From: Candidatus Calescibacterium sp.
GTDB taxonomy: Bacteria > Calescibacteriota > Calescibacteriia > Calescibacteriales > Calescibacteriaceae
Direction of reading: 5' to 3'
Assembly (NCBI GenBank): GCA_032249135.1
Contig: JAVVGL010000036.1
Location: 1-16,189, forward strand
Length of the DNA: 16,189 nt
Positions within the stretch are counted from its first letter, which is position 1. Every line of letters starts with the position of its first letter. The translations under genes and the position numbers were made by a program. Positions 1-6,815 of this stretch are shown piece after piece. Under the pieces are notes generated by a model. That model saw only the letters and a program-made list of their open reading frames with translations, did no database searches and was not told where the DNA came from.

Positions 1-890
1 GCAATATAAGATAAGACCGCGCAAGCAAAACCTATAAATAAAGCACCTCCGATATTAACAAATCCAGCAGCAGGTGTTATTCCAACAAGACCGGCAAGAA
101 GCCCTGACGTAGCTCCAAGCATAGTAGGTTTTTTTCTGTGAATCCATTCAATAACCATCCATACTACCGCTCCAAAAGATGCAGCAGTATTAGTATTTAT
201 AAGAGCCGCACCTGCAAGACCAGATGCAGAAAGAGCGCTCCCAGCATTAAAACCAAACCAACCAACAAGTAAAAGACCTCCTCCCAAAAGAACCAAAGGC
301 ATCTGCGAAGGCAAAATACCCTCCTCTTTCCTTCTACCAAGAGCAAGAGCTAATGCAATTCCAGCCATACCTGCATTTATATGAACAACTGTGCCACCGG
401 CAAAATCAAGAGCTCCAAGATTTGCCAAAAAACCACCACCCCACACCCAGTGAGCAATAGGAGAATAAACAAAAGTTACCCACAAAATTGAAAACAAAAA
501 CCAAGCAGAAAACTTCATTCTCTCCACAACCGAACCAGAAATAAGAGCAGTAGTTATAGCTGCGAATGTGAGCTGAAATGCGCAAAAAACAAACTCTGGA
601 ATAGTTCCTGAAACGGACTTTACTCCTATACCGTTCATAAAAAACTTCTCAGTACCACCTATTATACCCCACTTTGATGGTCCAAAAGAAAGAGAATATG
701 CCCATAAAACCCAGACAACACTTACAATAAAGTATGTCGCTGCGTTCATCATAAGAGTGTTGATAATACTTTTCGCTCTTGTAAGCCCTCCATAAAAGAG
801 AGCAAGAGCTGGCAAAGTCATCAAAGCCACCAGCCCCGTTGCAACTATAAGCCAAGCCGTATCTCCTTGATTTATTACTGCCTCTTGCAT
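1..890 (-). CDS. amtB: Ammonium transporter (Amt family), 3' end outside window; absent from the supplied ORF track
   Basis: Manual translation of the minus strand from ATG 890 gives MQEAVINQGDTAWLIVATGLVALMTLPALALFYGG...FQLTFAAIT...VERMKF...YSPIAHWVWGGG...ALDFAGGTVVHINAG...GWFGFNAGS...AGLVGITPAAG, all hallmark Amt motifs. The frame is open to base 1. SD GGAGGTG at 898-904. The ATG overlaps the upstream TGA (TGATG). Confidence 0.97.
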   Translation of the reverse strand, partial: MQEAVINQGDTAWLIVATGLVALMTLPALALFYGGLTRAKSIINTLMMNAATYFIVSVVWVLWAYSLSFGPSKWGIIGGTEKFFMNGIGVKSVSGTIPEFVFCAFQLTFAAITTALISGSVVERMKFSAWFLFSILWVTFVYSPIAHWVWGGGFLANLGALDFAGGTVVHINAGMAGIALALALGRRKEEGILPSQMPLVLLGGGLLLVGWFGFNAGSALSASGLAGAALINTNTAASFGAVVWMVIEWIHRKKPTMLGATSGLLAGLVGITPAAGFVNIGGALFIGFACAVLSYI

Positions 891-1420
891 CACCATTCAC
901 CTCCTTCTTTTTTATTTTTTTGTTTAAGAAAAGAGAAAATCTCCGTTATAAATTTCTCTGCATTCGACCAAATAAACTTTATCTCATGAGACAAGAAGAA
1001 TTTCATCTCAATTGTCTGAACAACAAAAACACCTAATAAATCACCGTTTTTTACAATAGGTATAGCAAGAAAAGATTGATATTTCTCTTCACCAGAACCC
1101 GGAACATAGTAAAAATCAGGATGACGATATGGTTCTTTGACAGAAATGGGTCTCATCTCCCTTGCGCATTTGCCAACAAGCCCTCTACTTATAGGAATTC
1201 TTGTTCCCCAACTTGCCTTATCTAAACCGTAGCTACACCAAAGAATAAGTTCTTTCCTAAATTCATCGTATATATAGATCGTTGCAACATCAACTCCCAA
1301 AAAATGAGCAATATCTTTCAGCTTTAAAAACAACCTATCTTTGTCCATAACCTTTTCCATAATCTCATCTATTTTGACATCATTTTTCATCTCAAACTTG
1401 TCTATACTTAACATACCCAT
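890..1420 (-). CDS. Stand-alone GAF domain protein resembling the N-terminal GAF of PtsP (EI-Ntr)
   Basis: Motifs GLVGKCAREMRPI, HPDFYYVPGSGEEKYQSFLAIPI and LLGVFVVQ resemble the PtsP GAF pattern (G.VG.V....EP.N..., HP.F.Y.P...EE....FLGVPI, LLGVLVVQ). No output domain. SD GGAGGT at 1429-1434 favours ATG 1420; GTG 1423 is the alternative. Confidence 0.85.
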   Translation of the reverse strand: MGMLSIDKFEMKNDVKIDEIMEKVMDKDRLFLKLKDIAHFLGVDVATIYIYDEFRKELILWCSYGLDKASWGTRIPISRGLVGKCAREMRPISVKEPYRHPDFYYVPGSGEEKYQSFLAIPIVKNGDLLGVFVVQTIEMKFFLSHEIKFIWSNAEKFITEIFSFLKQKNKKEGGEW

Positions 1421-1422
1421 CA

Positions 1423-2244
1423 CTATTTACCTCCTTTCAAATCTATATCAACATCAAGCTGTAATGTCCAAATCCACCCCTCTGGAACACCGGCTGCGGT
1501 CTTATCAAAAAAGAATACAGGTCCTGTAAGCAAATCAATAGTTGGAGTTATAAAAAAGTATATTCCACCTCCCCAGGCACCCAAACTGTGTTTGCCAGTC
1601 ATAATATCAGCAGTAAGAACTATTTTCTCTATAATAGGAACATCTATTGGATAAGAAAACCAACCTGCAAGCAATCCAAGATTATTTTCCTTTCCATCAG
1701 AAGATTTAAATAAAGTTTTTTCAAGTCCATAAAAAGCTCCTACTTGAATAGTTCCCAAATATTTCAAAGCTCCCCAATCTTCAAGCATAGTTTTCCCAAG
1801 CATAAAATAGAGTATGTTGTAATTATTCACTCCTCCCTTAAAACCGAGATTGAAAATTCCAAAAGACCAACCAGGCTGACCTTTGAAAAATGTATCCTCC
1901 GGTGTTCCAATTTTTGTATTAAGGAGCAAAGGAAAAACCTCCTTTCCTTGCTGATCTTTGAAAGGAGATGGCAAGAATAAATCAAATCCGAATTCCCAGT
2001 TTAGCTCTTTTAAAGGCAGAAGACCAATCGTCAAGCCAGTAATAATGGGATAAGCAGTTTTGTGATTAAAATAAGTATCATAAGTTATGTGTAGGACGCC
2101 AAAAGGTTGAAGATAAGGAGTAGATGGAGCCCAGAATGTTGTGGATGGTGTTGATTGAGCATTCCGAACCACCAAAACCGAACTCAAAACAAAACCAACC
2201 GCTGCCAAAACAATACAATAGTATCCCCTTTTTATTTTTTCCAT
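1423..2244 (-). CDS. Secreted protein, probable outer-membrane beta-barrel/porin-like
   Basis: N-terminal signal peptide (KIKR, hydrophobic stretch, AQS-like cleavage site). Many alternating aromatic/hydrophobic beta-strand segments, ending WIWTLQLDVDIDL. SD GGAGGTG at 2252-2258. The CDS is well supported; the porin function is inference. Confidence 0.6.
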   Translation of the reverse strand: MEKIKRGYYCIVLAAVGFVLSSVLVVRNAQSTPSTTFWAPSTPYLQPFGVLHITYDTYFNHKTAYPIITGLTIGLLPLKELNWEFGFDLFLPSPFKDQQGKEVFPLLLNTKIGTPEDTFFKGQPGWSFGIFNLGFKGGVNNYNILYFMLGKTMLEDWGALKYLGTIQVGAFYGLEKTLFKSSDGKENNLGLLAGWFSYPIDVPIIEKIVLTADIMTGKHSLGAWGGGIYFFITPTIDLLTGPVFFFDKTAAGVPEGWIWTLQLDVDIDLKGGK

Positions 2245-2435
2245 ATCTTTTCACCTCCTTTCTTGATTTTTTTTTGTTGCTCTTTCTTAAACTGAAATTT
2301 CTCTTATCCTTAACAATAGTTAGAGTATCCCCGTATTAGATTTGGTCGATCTTTTCCTTTTCCGCTTTTTTTTTTACAGAAGGTCGCTACTACTTTTTAT
2401 ATCACATCTAGAACAGTTTCCTCTCTCGCTTCAAA

Positions 2436-3863
2436 TCAAATATCGTAGTATGACATAAATTCCCATGGAGTTGGGCGAGCATAAAGTTCTTTTACTTCTT
2501 TTTCATATTTCCATTCTATATATTCATCAATAAATTGTTTGGAAAATACTCCTCCTTTGAGCAAAAATTCATGGTCTCTTTTGAGCTCTTCAAGCGACTC
2601 AGCCAAAGAAGAAGGAGTTTTTGGAACTTTTGCGAGAACTTCTGGCGGGAGCTTATATATGTTTGTATCAAACGGCTCGCCCGGATTTATCTTCTTCTCT
2701 ATACCATCAAGCCCAGCCATAAGCATAGCAGCGAACGCTAAATAGGGATTGCAAGATGGGTCAGGGAATCTCACTTCTATCCTCTTTGCTTTTGGAGAAG
2801 GTGAATACATAGGAATTCTTATTGCAGCGGACCTATTTCTTTGCGAGTAAGCAAGATTTATAGGAGCTTCGTATCCTGGAACAAGTCTTTTATAAGAGTT
2901 TGTAGTCGGATTAGTTATTGCGCAAAGAGCTCTACCATGAGTTATTATACCACCTATATACCACATCGCAAGTTCTGAAAGACCAGCATATTTCTCACCC
3001 GCAAAGAGAGGTTTCCCGTTTTTCCACAAGCTCTGATGTGTATGCATACCAGAACCGTTGTCCCCGAAAATAGGTTTAGGCATAAAAGTAGCAGTTTTTC
3101 CATATTTTTTTGCAACATTCTTTACAACATATTTGAGCATTACCGCATTATCTGCCATCTCAACCAGAGGTCTTGCTTTTATATCTATCTCACCTTGACC
3201 AGCAGTTGCAACCTCATGGTGATGAACCTCAACCTCTATCCCCATACTTTCAAGTATCATTGAAATCTCATTTCTTATATCTGTGAGAGTATCAAATGGA
3301 GGAGCGGGGAAATAACCTTCTTTGTACCTTATTTTGTATCCTTTGGAGTTTTCGTCTCCACTTCTCCATAGTCCCTCCTCTGAATCTATTTTGTAGAAAG
3401 AATAATTTGGAGCTTCTCCGAATGAAACCGAATCAAAAATGAAAAATTCAAGTTCTGGACCAAAAAGGGTAGAATCTGCTATACCTGTTTCTTTGAGGTA
3501 TTTTTCTGCCTTCTGAGCTATATATCTTGTATCTTTATAATATGGTTCATGAGTTATGGGGTCTTTGATATTTGCTATAACAGATATTGTTTTTTCTTTG
3601 AAGAACGGATCAACAACTGCGGTTTTTGGGTCAGGGAAAAGGAGCATATCTGATTCGTGAATTGACTGCCACATACGAATAGATGAACCATCAAAACCAA
3701 TACCCTCCTCCTCTATAACCTCCTGAGTTATCTTATCAGCAGGTACCGTCAGATGCTGTAAAAGACCGAGAGGATCTAAAAACTTTATATCAACAAACTT
3801 TGCATTCTCCGCCTTAATGAATTCAATCAAGTCCTTTGCATCTCGTGGTCTTTGCTTTGCCAT
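2436..3863 (-). CDS. glnA: Glutamine synthetase type I (GSI-beta-like)
   Basis: Motifs FDGSSI, GPELEFFIFD, HHHEVATAGQGEI, TATFMPKPIFGDNGSGMHTHQSL, NSYKRLVPGYEAP, RNRSAAIRIP and RIEVRFPDPSCNPY. The beta-type insertion after EFFIFD and the adenylylation-site Tyr (NIYKL) are present. SD GGGGGT at 3871-3876 favours ATG 3863 over 3899. Confidence 0.98.
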   Translation of the reverse strand: MAKQRPRDAKDLIEFIKAENAKFVDIKFLDPLGLLQHLTVPADKITQEVIEEEGIGFDGSSIRMWQSIHESDMLLFPDPKTAVVDPFFKEKTISVIANIKDPITHEPYYKDTRYIAQKAEKYLKETGIADSTLFGPELEFFIFDSVSFGEAPNYSFYKIDSEEGLWRSGDENSKGYKIRYKEGYFPAPPFDTLTDIRNEISMILESMGIEVEVHHHEVATAGQGEIDIKARPLVEMADNAVMLKYVVKNVAKKYGKTATFMPKPIFGDNGSGMHTHQSLWKNGKPLFAGEKYAGLSELAMWYIGGIITHGRALCAITNPTTNSYKRLVPGYEAPINLAYSQRNRSAAIRIPMYSPSPKAKRIEVRFPDPSCNPYLAFAAMLMAGLDGIEKKINPGEPFDTNIYKLPPEVLAKVPKTPSSLAESLEELKRDHEFLLKGGVFSKQFIDEYIEWKYEKEVKELYARPTPWEFMSYYDI

Positions 3864-3986
3864 ATCATTTACCCCCTTTTTTCTTTTTGTTTTTGCCATA
3901 TTTTATTTTCTTTTCAAAGATTTTTTTTATTCTTTTAAACAGGTTTTTATTTATTCTTTCAATTCAAAAATTCTTTCATTTTATAC

Positions 3987-4003
3987 AGGGAAAAGTGTGC
4001 CAA
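3987..4003 (-). promoter_or_regulatory. Candidate sigma54 (-24/-12) promoter for the glnA operon
   Basis: Minus strand reads TTGGCACACTTTTCCCT. The -24 element (TTGGCAC) is perfect, but the -12 reads TCCC instead of TTGC. It lies between a GAFTGA-containing activator gene and glnA. Confidence 0.5.
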
Positions 4004-4020
4004 GGTTTTTCATTAAGAAC

Positions 4021-4090
4021 TTTTACATTTTTGTTAAAATTTATGACAAAGAAGCAAGATTTTTTACAATTTTGTTATCTTTTTTGTCAA
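4021..4090. promoter_or_regulatory. Two tandem operator/enhancer-like boxes 41 bp apart (core TGTTA-N7-TG[A/T]CA)
   Basis: 4021-4049 TTTTACATTTTTGTTAAAATTTATGACAA versus 4062-4090 TTTTACAATTTTGTTATCTTTTTTGTCAA, 23/29 identical by hand count. The dyad TGTTA-N7-TGACA is at 4032-4048. Confidence 0.6.
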
Positions 4091-4092
4091 TT

Positions 4093-5640
4093 TTACATAT
4101 CTTTCTTCTTTTTGGTAAATGAAATGCCATATTTTTTGATACGCCATTCAAGTTGCCTTCTTGAAATTCCAAGTTTGCGAGCAGCATCGGAGAGATTTTT
4201 TGATTGAGATAAAACATATTCAATTGCTTCCTTTTCTATCTTCTGAACAACAGAAGAAAGATCACCTTTAACACCAACTATACTCAAAATTTCCTTAAAA
4301 CCAAAATCCCTAACATTATCAAAGCTTGTCGCTCCTCCAAAAACTTCCTCTCTATTTACCTCACCTTTCTTTTTCATCACATAATCTCTGATATAATCGG
4401 GAAGATCATCAGGAGTTATTACAAGATCAGAAGATGTTATAACAAGGCGCTCCAGAAGGTTTTCAAGTTCTCTGACATTCCCAGGCCAGTAATACTCTTC
4501 AAAAATCAACATAACACCTTTTGAGATTGAAACATTTTTCCCGTATTTTTTATTGAATTTTTCAAGAAAGAAATCAACAAGAGGTCTTATATCTTCTTTT
4601 CTCTCACGGAGCGGAGGAATAAATATAGGTACAACATTTAATCTGTAATAAAGGTCTTCTCTAAATTTTCCCTCTTTCACGAGTTCTTCAAGATTTCTGT
4701 TTGTTGCAGCAATAATTCTGACATTAACTTTCTTTGGTGTTCCCCCAATAGGTTCAATTTCCTTTGTTTGAATAACTCTGAGGAGTTTTGCTTGAAGAGA
4801 AGGAGAAAGATCTCCGATTTCATCTAAAAAAATAGTTCCGCCCTCTGCAAGTTCAAACTTACCCTTTTTATCATATAATGCTCCTGTGAAAGCACCCTTT
4901 TTATATCCGAAAAGTTCGCTTTCAAGAAGGTTTTCAGGAATTGCGGCACAGTTTATTTTCACAATCTGTTTCCCTGCTCTATCTGAGTTTTCATGAATAA
5001 GATCGGCTATGAGCTCTTTTCCAACACCACTCTCACCTCGTATGAGAACCGTAGCATCTGACTTTGCAACTTCAAGAGCAAGCCTTATAACTTCCTCCAT
5101 TTTTCTTGACCTGAAAATTATATTACCAACCTTTTTTACATCTGCTTTCTCTCTTGCTAAAATAAAGAAAGAAAACCCAATCATAGTCCCCACAACAGAA
5201 AGAAAATTCAATTTTATGTCAGCATCTTTGTCGTCAGAGAGTCCGCTTATGAATCCCAAATCTCTTCCCTCAACCCTTATTGGAGAGACGAGGATTTTGA
5301 GCTCGTGAAAATCTATAATATCTTTTCTTGGAGCTCTTGCAATTTTTTTCTCTTTTTCTTCTCTCTCATCTTCCTTTGGTCTGAGGGAGCTTGAAAAATT
5401 CAGAATAGATATAGATGGATTTATTATTCCGACTTCGCTTTCTATAACATGAAAGACCTGTTTCAAAATACTGTCAAATACTCCATAAGATGAAAGTATC
5501 TTTGAAATTCTCTCTAATGCAGAAAAATACCTTTCTAAACCACTTCCCACAAATAAAATAATTTGATGGGACTGCAACTTGAACCTCAAATTTACAAACA
5601 AACAAAAAATGAAAAGCTTTGATAAACACAAAATTGACAA
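4093..5640 (-). CDS. Sigma54-dependent enhancer-binding protein, NifA-like (degenerate GAF + AAA+ + Fis-type HTH); start uncertain, possibly GTG 5550
   Basis: Walker A GESGVGKE, NCAAIPENLLESELFG, GAFTGA, Walker B FLDEIGD, FREDLYYRLNV, WPGNVRELEN and C-terminal HTH NLSDAARKLGISRRQL. No receiver domain. The first ~30 codons from TTG 5640 look non-coding. Confidence 0.95.
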   Translation of the reverse strand: MSILCLSKLFIFCLFVNLRFKLQSHQIILFVGSGLERYFSALERISKILSSYGVFDSILKQVFHVIESEVGIINPSISILNFSSSLRPKEDEREEKEKKIARAPRKDIIDFHELKILVSPIRVEGRDLGFISGLSDDKDADIKLNFLSVVGTMIGFSFFILAREKADVKKVGNIIFRSRKMEEVIRLALEVAKSDATVLIRGESGVGKELIADLIHENSDRAGKQIVKINCAAIPENLLESELFGYKKGAFTGALYDKKGKFELAEGGTIFLDEIGDLSPSLQAKLLRVIQTKEIEPIGGTPKKVNVRIIAATNRNLEELVKEGKFREDLYYRLNVVPIFIPPLRERKEDIRPLVDFFLEKFNKKYGKNVSISKGVMLIFEEYYWPGNVRELENLLERLVITSSDLVITPDDLPDYIRDYVMKKKGEVNREEVFGGATSFDNVRDFGFKEILSIVGVKGDLSSVVQKIEKEAIEYVLSQSKNLSDAARKLGISRRQLEWRIKKYGISFTKKKKDM

Positions 5641-5642
5641 AT

Positions 5643-6728
5643 CTAAACTACATCTGGCAAAACTTTTTCAACGAATAGTTTCATAGATTTCATAACCTTT
5701 TCGTGGTCAAGTCCGCCGAGCCTTGTCCAGCATAGCAAATCTGTAAGCTTGTAATCATTTATAAGTTTTTTTAACTTCTGGGAAACATAATCTGGTGTAC
5801 CGACCAAAAATCCATGTTGGAAAGGACTTTGTGTTACGACAAATTCAAATTTAAGTTTCCCCCTATCATAATCGTTTATCATTTGGGTCATAATAAAATG
5901 TAAGTTCTTATAGAAATCTTCTCCCTCAGGATACTTTTGAGCTGGGATGAGCTTTGTAAAAGTTCTGAAATACCACATACAAGGTTCCTCAAACTCCGAA
6001 AGAGCTTTTCCCATATCTTCACTGACATAAACAAAAACAAGCCCTCCAATTCTATATTTTTTCGGGTCTTCTCCTTCTTCCTCCAATGTCTTTATATACT
6101 CATCTATCTTATCCGGTCCTGCAAGAAGAGGAGAGAAAATAAGGTTCATTTTCTTTTTCGCTTGAAACTTTATTGTATCTTGATTGAAAGATGCTCCAAA
6201 TAGCGGTGGATGAGGTTTCTGCAAAGGTTTTGGTCTTGGTCTCGCTCCTTTTATTACAAAATGTTTTCCTTCAAAATTCACCTCATCTTGTGTCCAGGAC
6301 ATTTTTATTATTTGAAGAGCCTCCTCAAACCTTGTTCTACTTTCTGATATTGGGACTCCATAACCTTCAAATTCGTGAGGTTGATATCCTCTGCCGACGC
6401 CGAAATCAAGTCTCCCATCTGATAGAACATCTAAAAATGCGAACTCTTCTGCAACTCTTATTGGATGATGAAATGGGAGCACAACCACCCCTGTTCCTAT
6501 TCTTATTCTTTTGGTTATTCCGGCTATGTATGAGCCAAAAACTTGGGTAGACGGCATAACACCATAGTCAGAGAAATGATGTTCTGCAATCCACACAGTA
6601 TCAAGTCCAATCTCATCTGCATATTTTATAAGTTCTATGTTTTCCTCATAGAATTGTTTTTCTGTTTTTCCTCTTGCCGACTCAAAAAGGTGTAAAAGCC
6701 CACATCTTAATTTAACTCCATCTTTCAT
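5643..6728 (-). CDS. LLM-class (bacterial luciferase-like) flavin-dependent oxidoreductase
   Basis: Motifs ADEIGLDTVWIAEHHF, TKRIRIGTGVVVLPFHHPIRVAEE, LDVLSDGRLDFGVGRGY, PKPLQKPHPP and SMKLFVEKVLP. SD GGAGGTG at 6735-6741 favours ATG 6728. Confidence 0.93.
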   Translation of the reverse strand: MKDGVKLRCGLLHLFESARGKTEKQFYEENIELIKYADEIGLDTVWIAEHHFSDYGVMPSTQVFGSYIAGITKRIRIGTGVVVLPFHHPIRVAEEFAFLDVLSDGRLDFGVGRGYQPHEFEGYGVPISESRTRFEEALQIIKMSWTQDEVNFEGKHFVIKGARPRPKPLQKPHPPLFGASFNQDTIKFQAKKKMNLIFSPLLAGPDKIDEYIKTLEEEGEDPKKYRIGGLVFVYVSEDMGKALSEFEEPCMWYFRTFTKLIPAQKYPEGEDFYKNLHFIMTQMINDYDRGKLKFEFVVTQSPFQHGFLVGTPDYVSQKLKKLINDYKLTDLLCWTRLGGLDHEKVMKSMKLFVEKVLPDVV

Positions 6729-6815
6729 CTTTTTCACCTCCTTTTTTATTTTTTGTTCTGCTACGAAGATATGTTAGTAATTTTTGAGGAAAAAGTGTTA
6801 AAAAAATCAAGTTTT

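Follow-up and report, generated by a model that had tools for sequence, protein, structure and literature searches.

The DNA analysed here, a stretch of 16,189 nucleotides (nt) referred to as the window, is the entire contig C36 of an assembly of the hot-spring bacterium Candidatus Calescibacterium sp. (2.1 Mb, 51 contigs, 87.5% complete), and it carries a small gene for a stand-alone GAF domain of the type found in PtsP, placed directly before the ammonium channel gene amtB. This gene is real, intact, free-standing and under purifying selection, and it belongs to a module in which a NifA-like sigma-54 activator, a sigma-54-type promoter, glnA, a secreted protein of 273 amino acids (aa), the GAF protein, amtB and glnK follow one another. 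A role for the free GAF protein as a trans-acting nitrogen sensor is plausible, and we put the chances at about even that it serves as an accessory sensor of a nitrogen metabolite, acting in trans and in addition to P-II. Families were assigned with Pfam and NCBIfam throughout, and all genes named in the window lie on the minus strand.

Several lines of evidence identify the kind of GAF domain. Against Pfam, the protein matched GAF (PF01590; 46.6 bits, cut-off 22.4) and GAF_2 (PF13185; 44.9 bits, cut-off 28.6) and nothing beyond these, with no match to P-II (PF00543) or to ANTAR (PF03861). Its best NCBIfam match is PtsP (NF008283; E 1.8e-21), which it follows over positions 4-149 of 748; the protein stops at residue 177, and its whole-protein PtsP score of 76.1 bits lies under the cut-off of 583 for that model. 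When the PDB was searched with a profile of the seven closest sequences, the top matches were the PtsP GAF domains 3ci6 (2.5e-23) and 3trc (3.4e-20), and the same two structures, 3trc and 3ci6, were the top Foldseek matches of an AlphaFold2 model (25-row alignment; pLDDT 87.5), which matched many solved GAF domains with a Foldseek probability of 1.00. If a PtsP-conserved column is defined as one in which nine or more of the 11 PtsP GAFs sampled share a residue, 24 of 30 such columns are identical in the window protein, including the motifs GLVG, HP, GEE and VVQ, and the other six are conservative. The first-pass annotation of this DNA, made from the letters and their reading frames, had called the domain PtsP-type; with a hidden Markov model comparison and a phylogeny now run, the NF008283 match, the PDB sequence search, the fold, the tree described below and the conserved columns all agree with that call.

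The tree contained 35 rows picked from hit lists, namely 22 stand-alone proteins, 11 PtsP GAF regions and, as outgroup, two other GAFs of the same genome. In it, the window protein groups with proteins of Brevinematales/Spirochaetia type in a supported clade of seven (98/93), nested in a supported clade of 16 rows (96/94) that are all short-record stand-alone proteins of 139-177 aa, and every PtsP row falls outside this clade of 16. Outside the genus, the closest homologues are proteins of 148-151 aa from Brevinematales/Spirochaetia metagenome-assembled genomes, at 48-54% identity, with the records MCX8029039.1, MCS7298477.1, MCX8097247.1 and MDW8111855.1. Short forms are also found more widely: a GAF profile retrieved 7903 proteins at E<=0.001 from a representative library of 1.8 billion proteins, where proteins of 139-190 aa appear amid many multi-GAF giants, and the Atlas has clusters of 156-172 aa, from several phyla, that consist of a GAF alone. 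Six pairwise comparisons of the GAF gene gave dN/dS values of 0.13-0.17, indicating purifying selection.

The GAF gene is set in the following row of features, listed from the upstream end of the minus strand:

5643-6737, minus strand: luciferase-like monooxygenase gene (Pfam/NCBIfam).
4093-5640, minus strand: sigma-54 activator gene, NifA-like AAA+ domain and helix-turn-helix (Pfam Sigma54_activat, 1.4e-71; HTH_8).
3988-4002, minus strand: sigma-54-type -24/-12 element TGGCACACTTTTCCC, upstream of glnA (relaxed regex scan).
2436-3899, minus strand: glnA, type I glutamine synthetase (GS), start at 3899 or 3863 (TIGR00653, 1.1e-200; Pfam Gln-synt_C and Gln-synt_N).
1423-2244, minus strand: gene of a 273-aa signal-peptide protein of no known family (open reading frame).
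890-1423, minus strand: stand-alone PtsP-type GAF gene (open reading frame; Pfam GAF/GAF_2; NF008283).
3-896, minus strand: amtB, first 298 codons, cut at the contig end (Pfam Ammonium_transp, 4.8e-83, profile positions 1-290 of 399).

The GAF reading frame encodes 177 aa from a GTG at 1423, or 176 aa from an ATG at 1420, and ends with a TGA at 892-890. The minus strand at 896-886 reads ATGGTGATGCA, and a wider read across the GAF/amtB border is ...GAAGGAGGTGAATGGTGATGCAA..., such that the GAF TGA (892-890) and the amtB ATG (890-888) have one base in common (TGATG). A GGAGG lies 9 nt 5' of the amtB ATG at 890, and an ATG at 896 and a GTG at 893 are other possible amtB starts. At the opposite border, the gene of the 273-aa protein (omp in what follows) ends in AAAGGAGGTAAATAG, and its TAG stop shares its G with the GAF GTG at 1423 (TAGTG), the ATG at 1420 being next; the GAF ribosome-binding site sits within the last codons (KGGK) of omp. 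Because start and stop codons overlap at both GAF borders, omp, the GAF gene and amtB are packed with overlapping codons. The GAF-only reading frame at 890-1423 on the minus strand, with Pfam GAF and GAF_2 as its only families, the TGATG overlap and the lack of a P-II gene between glnA (2436-3899) and amtB had all been noticed in the first-pass annotation and hold good in the sequence, the reading frames and Pfam. Its placing of glnA directly beside the GAF gene does not, since omp (1423-2244), which it did not mention, stands between the two.

While the window itself contains no P-II gene, glnK looks absent at its amtB because of a contig break. The sole P-II gene of the genome lies on contig C1 (C1:207837-208154, minus strand), 128 nt from the end of that contig, and the C1 end, read on the P-II strand, holds the last 14 codons of an Amt gene (GLDSSQHGEKAFNM) and a stop 5' of the P-II gene. 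Only one match to an Amt gene was found in the genome, namely the partial amtB of the window. In the metagenome contig L042, whose GAF gene is 99% identical, amtB is complete at 406 aa: its residues 1-298 correspond to the window amtB, its C-terminus is exactly GLDSSQHGEKAFNM, and 3' of it lie a 112-aa glnK identical to that of C1 and then the same lipoprotein and ABC-ATPase genes as in C1. Comparison of L042 with C36 and C1 therefore places about 94 missing amtB codons between the two contigs, and glnK directly 3' of amtB. This GlnK has R47 and Y51, residues with roles described for the E. coli AmtB-GlnK pair. The genome also has GlnE and a GlnD homologue (TIGR01693, E 1.5e-113, under the cut-off of that model), so that the classical set of GlnD, one GlnK, GlnE and type I GS is complete, and the GAF protein is an addition to it, not a substitute for P-II.

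The arrangement is conserved within the genus. Among the 40 nearest genomes, GAF orthologues (69-80% identity) were found only in three others of the same genus, and scans of genome and metagenome collections added nine further metagenome contigs and, apart from this genus, gave nothing but full-length PtsP genes. The relatives' set includes two genome records under the names Candidatus Calescibacterium nevadense and bacterium HR19. Twelve distinct related loci resulted (G001-G003 and L042-L050), and the order omp, GAF, amtB is present in 12/12, which bears out the linkage of GAF and amtB. The length of the GAF gene and both of its gene borders are kept at 69-99% identity; glnK lies 3' of amtB in all ten related loci that extend past amtB (in full in G003; L042), and the activator and glnA lie upstream wherever a related locus reaches that far.

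A sister genus within the family has a different small protein at this position. In G005 and G006, which represent one genus, glnA is followed by a reading frame of 132 or 155 aa, then amtB and glnK, and there is no GAF gene; the stop of the small reading frame is 16-17 nt 5' of the amtB start codon:

L070:5136-5534 (G005), minus strand: small sensor-like gene, 132 aa (open reading frames).
L071:5153-5620 (G006), minus strand: small sensor-like gene, 155 aa (open reading frames).

The encoded protein is single-domain and cytoplasmic with three invariant cysteines, and its six homologues in a set of 5.8 billion proteins are all unnamed. Against Pfam it gave only a weak, sub-threshold match to dCache_1, and its AlphaFold2 model (8-row alignment; pLDDT 85) was matched by Foldseek to the PAS-like domain of YkuI (2.8e-7), the KinD sensor and amino-acid-binding dCache domains, with TM-scores of about 0.5-0.57, from which a PAS/Cache-like sensor fold is predicted. 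Similarity between the GAF family and the small protein was not significant, and no homologue of the latter was found in the window's genome. Two genera would therefore each have, ahead of amtB-glnK, a single-domain protein with a sensor fold unrelated to that of the other, and the sister-genus arrangement, with a predicted PAS/Cache-like protein at the GAF position, is new. The neighbours common to the GAF and the small protein are glnA, amtB and glnK, and not the activator or the 273-aa protein. In a third genus (G004; L072:6255-8615, plus strand), amtB is part of a single 786-aa frame that runs from a signal peptide through Amt (1.2e-129) and a second signal-peptide-like stretch to a BBP2 (OmpL-like) outer-membrane porin (1.2e-60), and it is either a true Amt-porin fusion or the result of a stop codon lost between amtB and a porin gene. 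There, glnA is downstream of amtB, and no glnK was found within the stretch fetched.

The GAF reading frame encodes a real, expressed, cytoplasmic protein, expression being judged from RNA-library contig cover. In contigs of four metatranscriptome runs from four studies (X15-X18), single contigs cross the GAF/amtB junction in 3/4 runs and the omp/GAF junction in 2/4, with the limit that RNA-library contigs can contain DNA and a two-gene contig is no proof of a single transcript. One such contig extends 303 nt past window base 1, with amtB continuing. Two further readings are not usable as evidence, namely the zero cover of the bin 3974-4100, upstream of the promoter-like element, in all four runs, and a contig word-depth that is several-fold greater for glnA than for omp-GAF-amtB. 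The sigma-54-type element 5' of glnA occupies the same relative place in 10/10 sequences (the window and nine loci; relaxed regex), L029, L030 and L049 being among the sequences that have it there. In the G003 and G002 lineages it reads TGGCACACCTTTTGC, which is the consensus TGGCAC-N5-TTGC; the -12 part, TTGC there, is TCCC in the lineage of the window, as if the spacer differed by one base. A strict sigma-54 consensus pattern had no match in the window, and a loose TGG-N9-TGC pattern was uninformative, with eight matches where 4.07 were expected. In positions 1-4200 there were no terminator-like sites, and a sigma-70 scan gave seven promoter-like sites where 11.2 were expected by chance, which does not settle whether an internal promoter lies between glnA and omp.

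The partners of the phosphotransferase system (PTS) with which PtsP works were also sought. HPr (PF00381) and EIIA-Ntr (PF00359) went unmatched in the 87.5%-complete genome, in searches for which the control was the detection of these families in 7/14 reference genomes, and the N-terminal family of enzyme I (EI), PEP-utilisers_N, had no match in the genome either. The other matches to the PtsP model in the genome were a 1067-aa frame, by eye a pyruvate phosphate dikinase, and a 464-aa frame with, by eye, a GAF followed by a GGDEF domain. Since the GAF protein has no EI domains, and NPr and EIIA-Ntr were not found, the output known for PtsP, control of autophosphorylation, cannot apply to it.

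How a free GAF domain might act can be approached through the proteins in which related or comparable domains have been studied. Glutamine and 2-oxoglutarate act on PtsP in opposite ways, and both effects need its GAF domain (PMC13104625); in Caulobacter, a point change in a conserved part of the PtsP GAF, L83Q, abolishes the response to glutamine (PMC4848567). In Azospirillum, a NifA GAF domain is reported to bind P-II and to regulate in trans (PMC3854208). For the window protein, we infer that the GAF pocket, which senses glutamine/2-oxoglutarate in PtsP, would bind a metabolite that reports nitrogen status. Lacking an output domain, the protein would relay this signal through ligand-dependent contact with a second member of the module; which ligand it binds, which partner it contacts and which way the effect runs are all part of this proposal. 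L82 in the GLVG motif is a tentative candidate for the counterpart of the Caulobacter position.

As partner, the AmtB-GlnK pair or GS would be the first choice and the NifA-like activator the second, an order suggested by the codon overlap with amtB and by the fact that glnA, amtB and glnK are the sole neighbours shared with the sister-genus protein. A complex prediction with AmtB (406 aa, from L042), GlnK and the GAF protein scored 0.00 in two runs without controls, and counts neither way. A bolder version of the proposal would treat the single-domain sensors, the GAF protein and the predicted PAS/Cache-like protein of the sister genus, as interchangeable third subunits of AmtB-GlnK that are made together with the channel and dock on AmtB or on GlnK, such that a metabolite, for example glutamine, would gate ammonium uptake directly and bypass GlnD. 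We consider this distinctly unlikely.

One competing explanation keeps the free GAF as a regulator and moves its target to the NifA-like activator, to which it would give, or from which it would block, a nitrogen input, with a feedback loop on the glnA-amtB-glnK operon as the outcome. This is rather unlikely. The activator has no receiver domain and no recognisable sensor domain: the nifA model matches from residue 167 onward only, the N-terminal ~165 aa have no family match, and the true start is probably near 5550. At a Pfam threshold of E<=10, a weak GAF_2 match appears in that region in 2/6 orthologues (best E 0.003), so the N-terminus may be a degenerate GAF; the activator gene lies beside glnA in the loci that reach that far, with the sigma-54-type element between them; and in Azospirillum, an N-truncated NifA comes under fixed-nitrogen-responsive control by the NifA GAF when this is supplied in trans (PMC3854208). 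However, the window GAF is PtsP-type and not NifA-type, and a comparison of the GAF family with the activator N-terminus by hhalign, using a single sequence and a 6-row profile, was not significant. The translational coupling of the GAF gene is to amtB and not to the activator, and the sister genus has its sensor-like gene before amtB-glnK with no activator homologue in the 11-kb stretches fetched. By eye, the N-terminal ~130-165 aa of the activator (window 5137-5535, minus strand) resemble a shortened GAF, with a helix, a strand, a charged linker, a hairpin and a helix.

The remaining alternatives deny the protein an accessory role in nitrogen control. It could be a GAF-fold enzyme like free methionine-R-sulfoxide reductase (fRMsr), or could bind some other ligand, for example a cyclic nucleotide, and be carried in the operon as a passenger, and its fold matches do include fRMsr (3mmh, 4mmn, 3ksf) and cyclic-nucleotide-binding GAFs, while C86 is invariant across the seven closest homologues; across the wider stand-alone clade this cysteine is nevertheless not kept, the Pfam/NCBIfam matches at E<=0.01 include no fRMsr family, the top sequence and fold matches are PtsP GAFs with 24/30 PtsP columns kept, and the gene has a fixed place with overlapping codons among nitrogen genes in 12/12 loci, all of which makes a passenger quite improbable. 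The first-pass annotation had instead proposed that the GAF stands in for P-II at Amt, in the slot normally held by glnK, a view encouraged by the lack of a P-II gene between glnA and amtB or anywhere in the window. The phrase is misleading, as amtB runs off the contig at base 1 and glnK lies 3' of it, and a canonical glnK directly after amtB, the arrangement named beforehand as telling against that idea, is what C1, L042 and the 10/10 related loci reaching that far show; with R47 and Y51 in that GlnK and a GlnD homologue present, a replacement of GlnK is hardly credible. Equally hard to sustain is the notion that the reading frame is a remnant of a broken ptsP or sensor-kinase gene, which had been named at the outset as a possible undoing of the proposal. 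Its best family match is indeed the PtsP N-terminus, public records of its homologues are named as PTS proteins, and the frame is disturbed in 3/12 related loci, but dN/dS is 0.13-0.17, the length and both borders are conserved at 69-99% identity, the clade in which the protein falls is old and made up of stand-alone forms, and searches of the genome turned up no EI, HPr or EIIA-Ntr. There is also no room for EI domains, because amtB starts inside the GAF stop codon.

Several observations weigh against an accessory nitrogen sensor. GlnK with R47 and Y51, GlnD and GlnE are all there, so nothing demands an extra sensor. The GAF frame is not undisturbed everywhere: the GAF core and the initial ~35 codons of the gene are in different frames in G001 (L031/L032, about 4630-4770) and in L048, which is near-identical to it, either through a sequencing error in an A-rich run or through real decay, and L050 has both its GAF match and its amtB match divided between two frames; the disturbed frames of G001, L048 and L050 together represent either errors or decay in some populations. 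The gene is also narrowly distributed. None of the three genomes G004-G006, from the other two genera of the family, had a GAF match (0/3 at E<=1e-14), and 400 other genomes gave 13 matches outside the genus at E<=1e-22, of which 12 lie in frames of 763-811 aa that are PtsP and one in a frame of 210 aa; likewise, 6/7 gammaproteobacterial loci from the collection scan lie in PtsP frames, 745-769 aa long or cut by a contig end. About 36 short-frame GAF matches were listed and 20 of these loci fetched, comprising 15 GAF-ANTAR proteins, one HTH_17-GAF protein and four GAF-only proteins (one cut by the contig end), and amtB-glnK lies within 5 kb in only 1/20, a GAF-ANTAR (G162), where glnA is near too. 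On this 20-locus survey, linkage of a free GAF to amtB was found only in the window's genus among the neighbourhoods read. To these may be added that the window-lineage element TGGCACACTTTTCCC is off consensus in its -12 part, and the limit stated above on two-gene contigs from RNA libraries.

The secreted 273-aa protein is as constant a neighbour as amtB, its gene preceding the GAF gene in 12/12 related loci (with a split frame in L042 and L045). It carries a signal peptide but matches no family in Pfam or NCBIfam, and the Atlas clusters closest to it consist of unnamed ~255-aa proteins of Omnitrophota, Myxococcota and Thermodesulfobacteriota; it is probably an outer-membrane protein that may form a channel connected with ammonium uptake. 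The 273-aa protein showed no significant similarity to the BBP2 porin domain within the AmtB frame of G004, or to a 260-aa secreted protein of locus L092 (G162:C32:1-9300). In L092, a GAF-ANTAR gene (3736-4446) stands beside a sigma-factor-like gene and amt-glnK-glnA, and a second P-II gene (424-744) is followed directly by the gene of the 260-aa protein, so that a GAF sensor and a secreted protein are again found with nitrogen genes. At the other end of the row, the luciferase-like monooxygenase gene ends 3 nt short of the listed start of the activator gene, and its position is kept in G003, L042, L044 and L049.

Few regulatory pairs in prokaryotes are as conserved as AmtB-GlnK, and PtsP is, to our knowledge, the only context in which this type of GAF has been studied. 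If the proposal is true, a free PtsP-type GAF within a row of glnA, amtB and glnK, in a genome where no PTS was found, would mean that contact between proteins is enough for this sensor to signal, and, with an unrelated sensor fold predicted for the protein at this position in a sister genus, accessory inputs to ammonium uptake may recur. As a small protein from a thermophile, it is suited to ligand-binding and structural work on how this type of GAF recognises glutamine and 2-oxoglutarate. The system is also to be corrected in one respect, as it is not an Amt system without P-II. No paper on a stand-alone PtsP-type GAF beside amtB was found in the literature, and the Calescamantes genome paper, in the part of its text that was available, has amtB in a figure legend only and does not mention the GAF.

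Among known systems, PtsP (EI-Ntr) of E. coli, Caulobacter and Sinorhizobium, with the solved domains 3ci6 from Acinetobacter and 3trc from Coxiella, has the same type of GAF and the same link to nitrogen; the window protein differs in being single-domain, in belonging to a separate old clade, and in being encoded inside a row of glnA, amtB and glnK. The GAF domain of NifA in Azospirillum brasilense offers another example of a GAF acting in nitrogen control as a separate polypeptide, with GlnB as partner and, as here, a NifA-like activator beside it, but that polypeptide came from the engineered splitting of one protein, whereas the window GAF is naturally free and matches the PtsP model and not the nifA model (PMC3854208). 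Lone GAF domains of similar size occur as the enzyme fRMsr, which takes Foldseek ranks 5-33 with the window model; the window GAF, in contrast, has no match to that family, and the sole invariant cysteine of its close clade is not kept in the wider clade. Among short proteins that have a related GAF, GAF-ANTAR proteins are the most frequent in the sampled genomes (15/20 fetched), and one of them (G162, L092) is encoded near amt-glnK-glnA, but these carry an RNA-binding ANTAR output domain that the window protein lacks. Like GlnK, the GAF protein is a small cytoplasmic protein, a putative sensor of metabolites, encoded beside amtB and probably made together with it, although its fold and family are unrelated to those of GlnK and a true GlnK is encoded just downstream as well.

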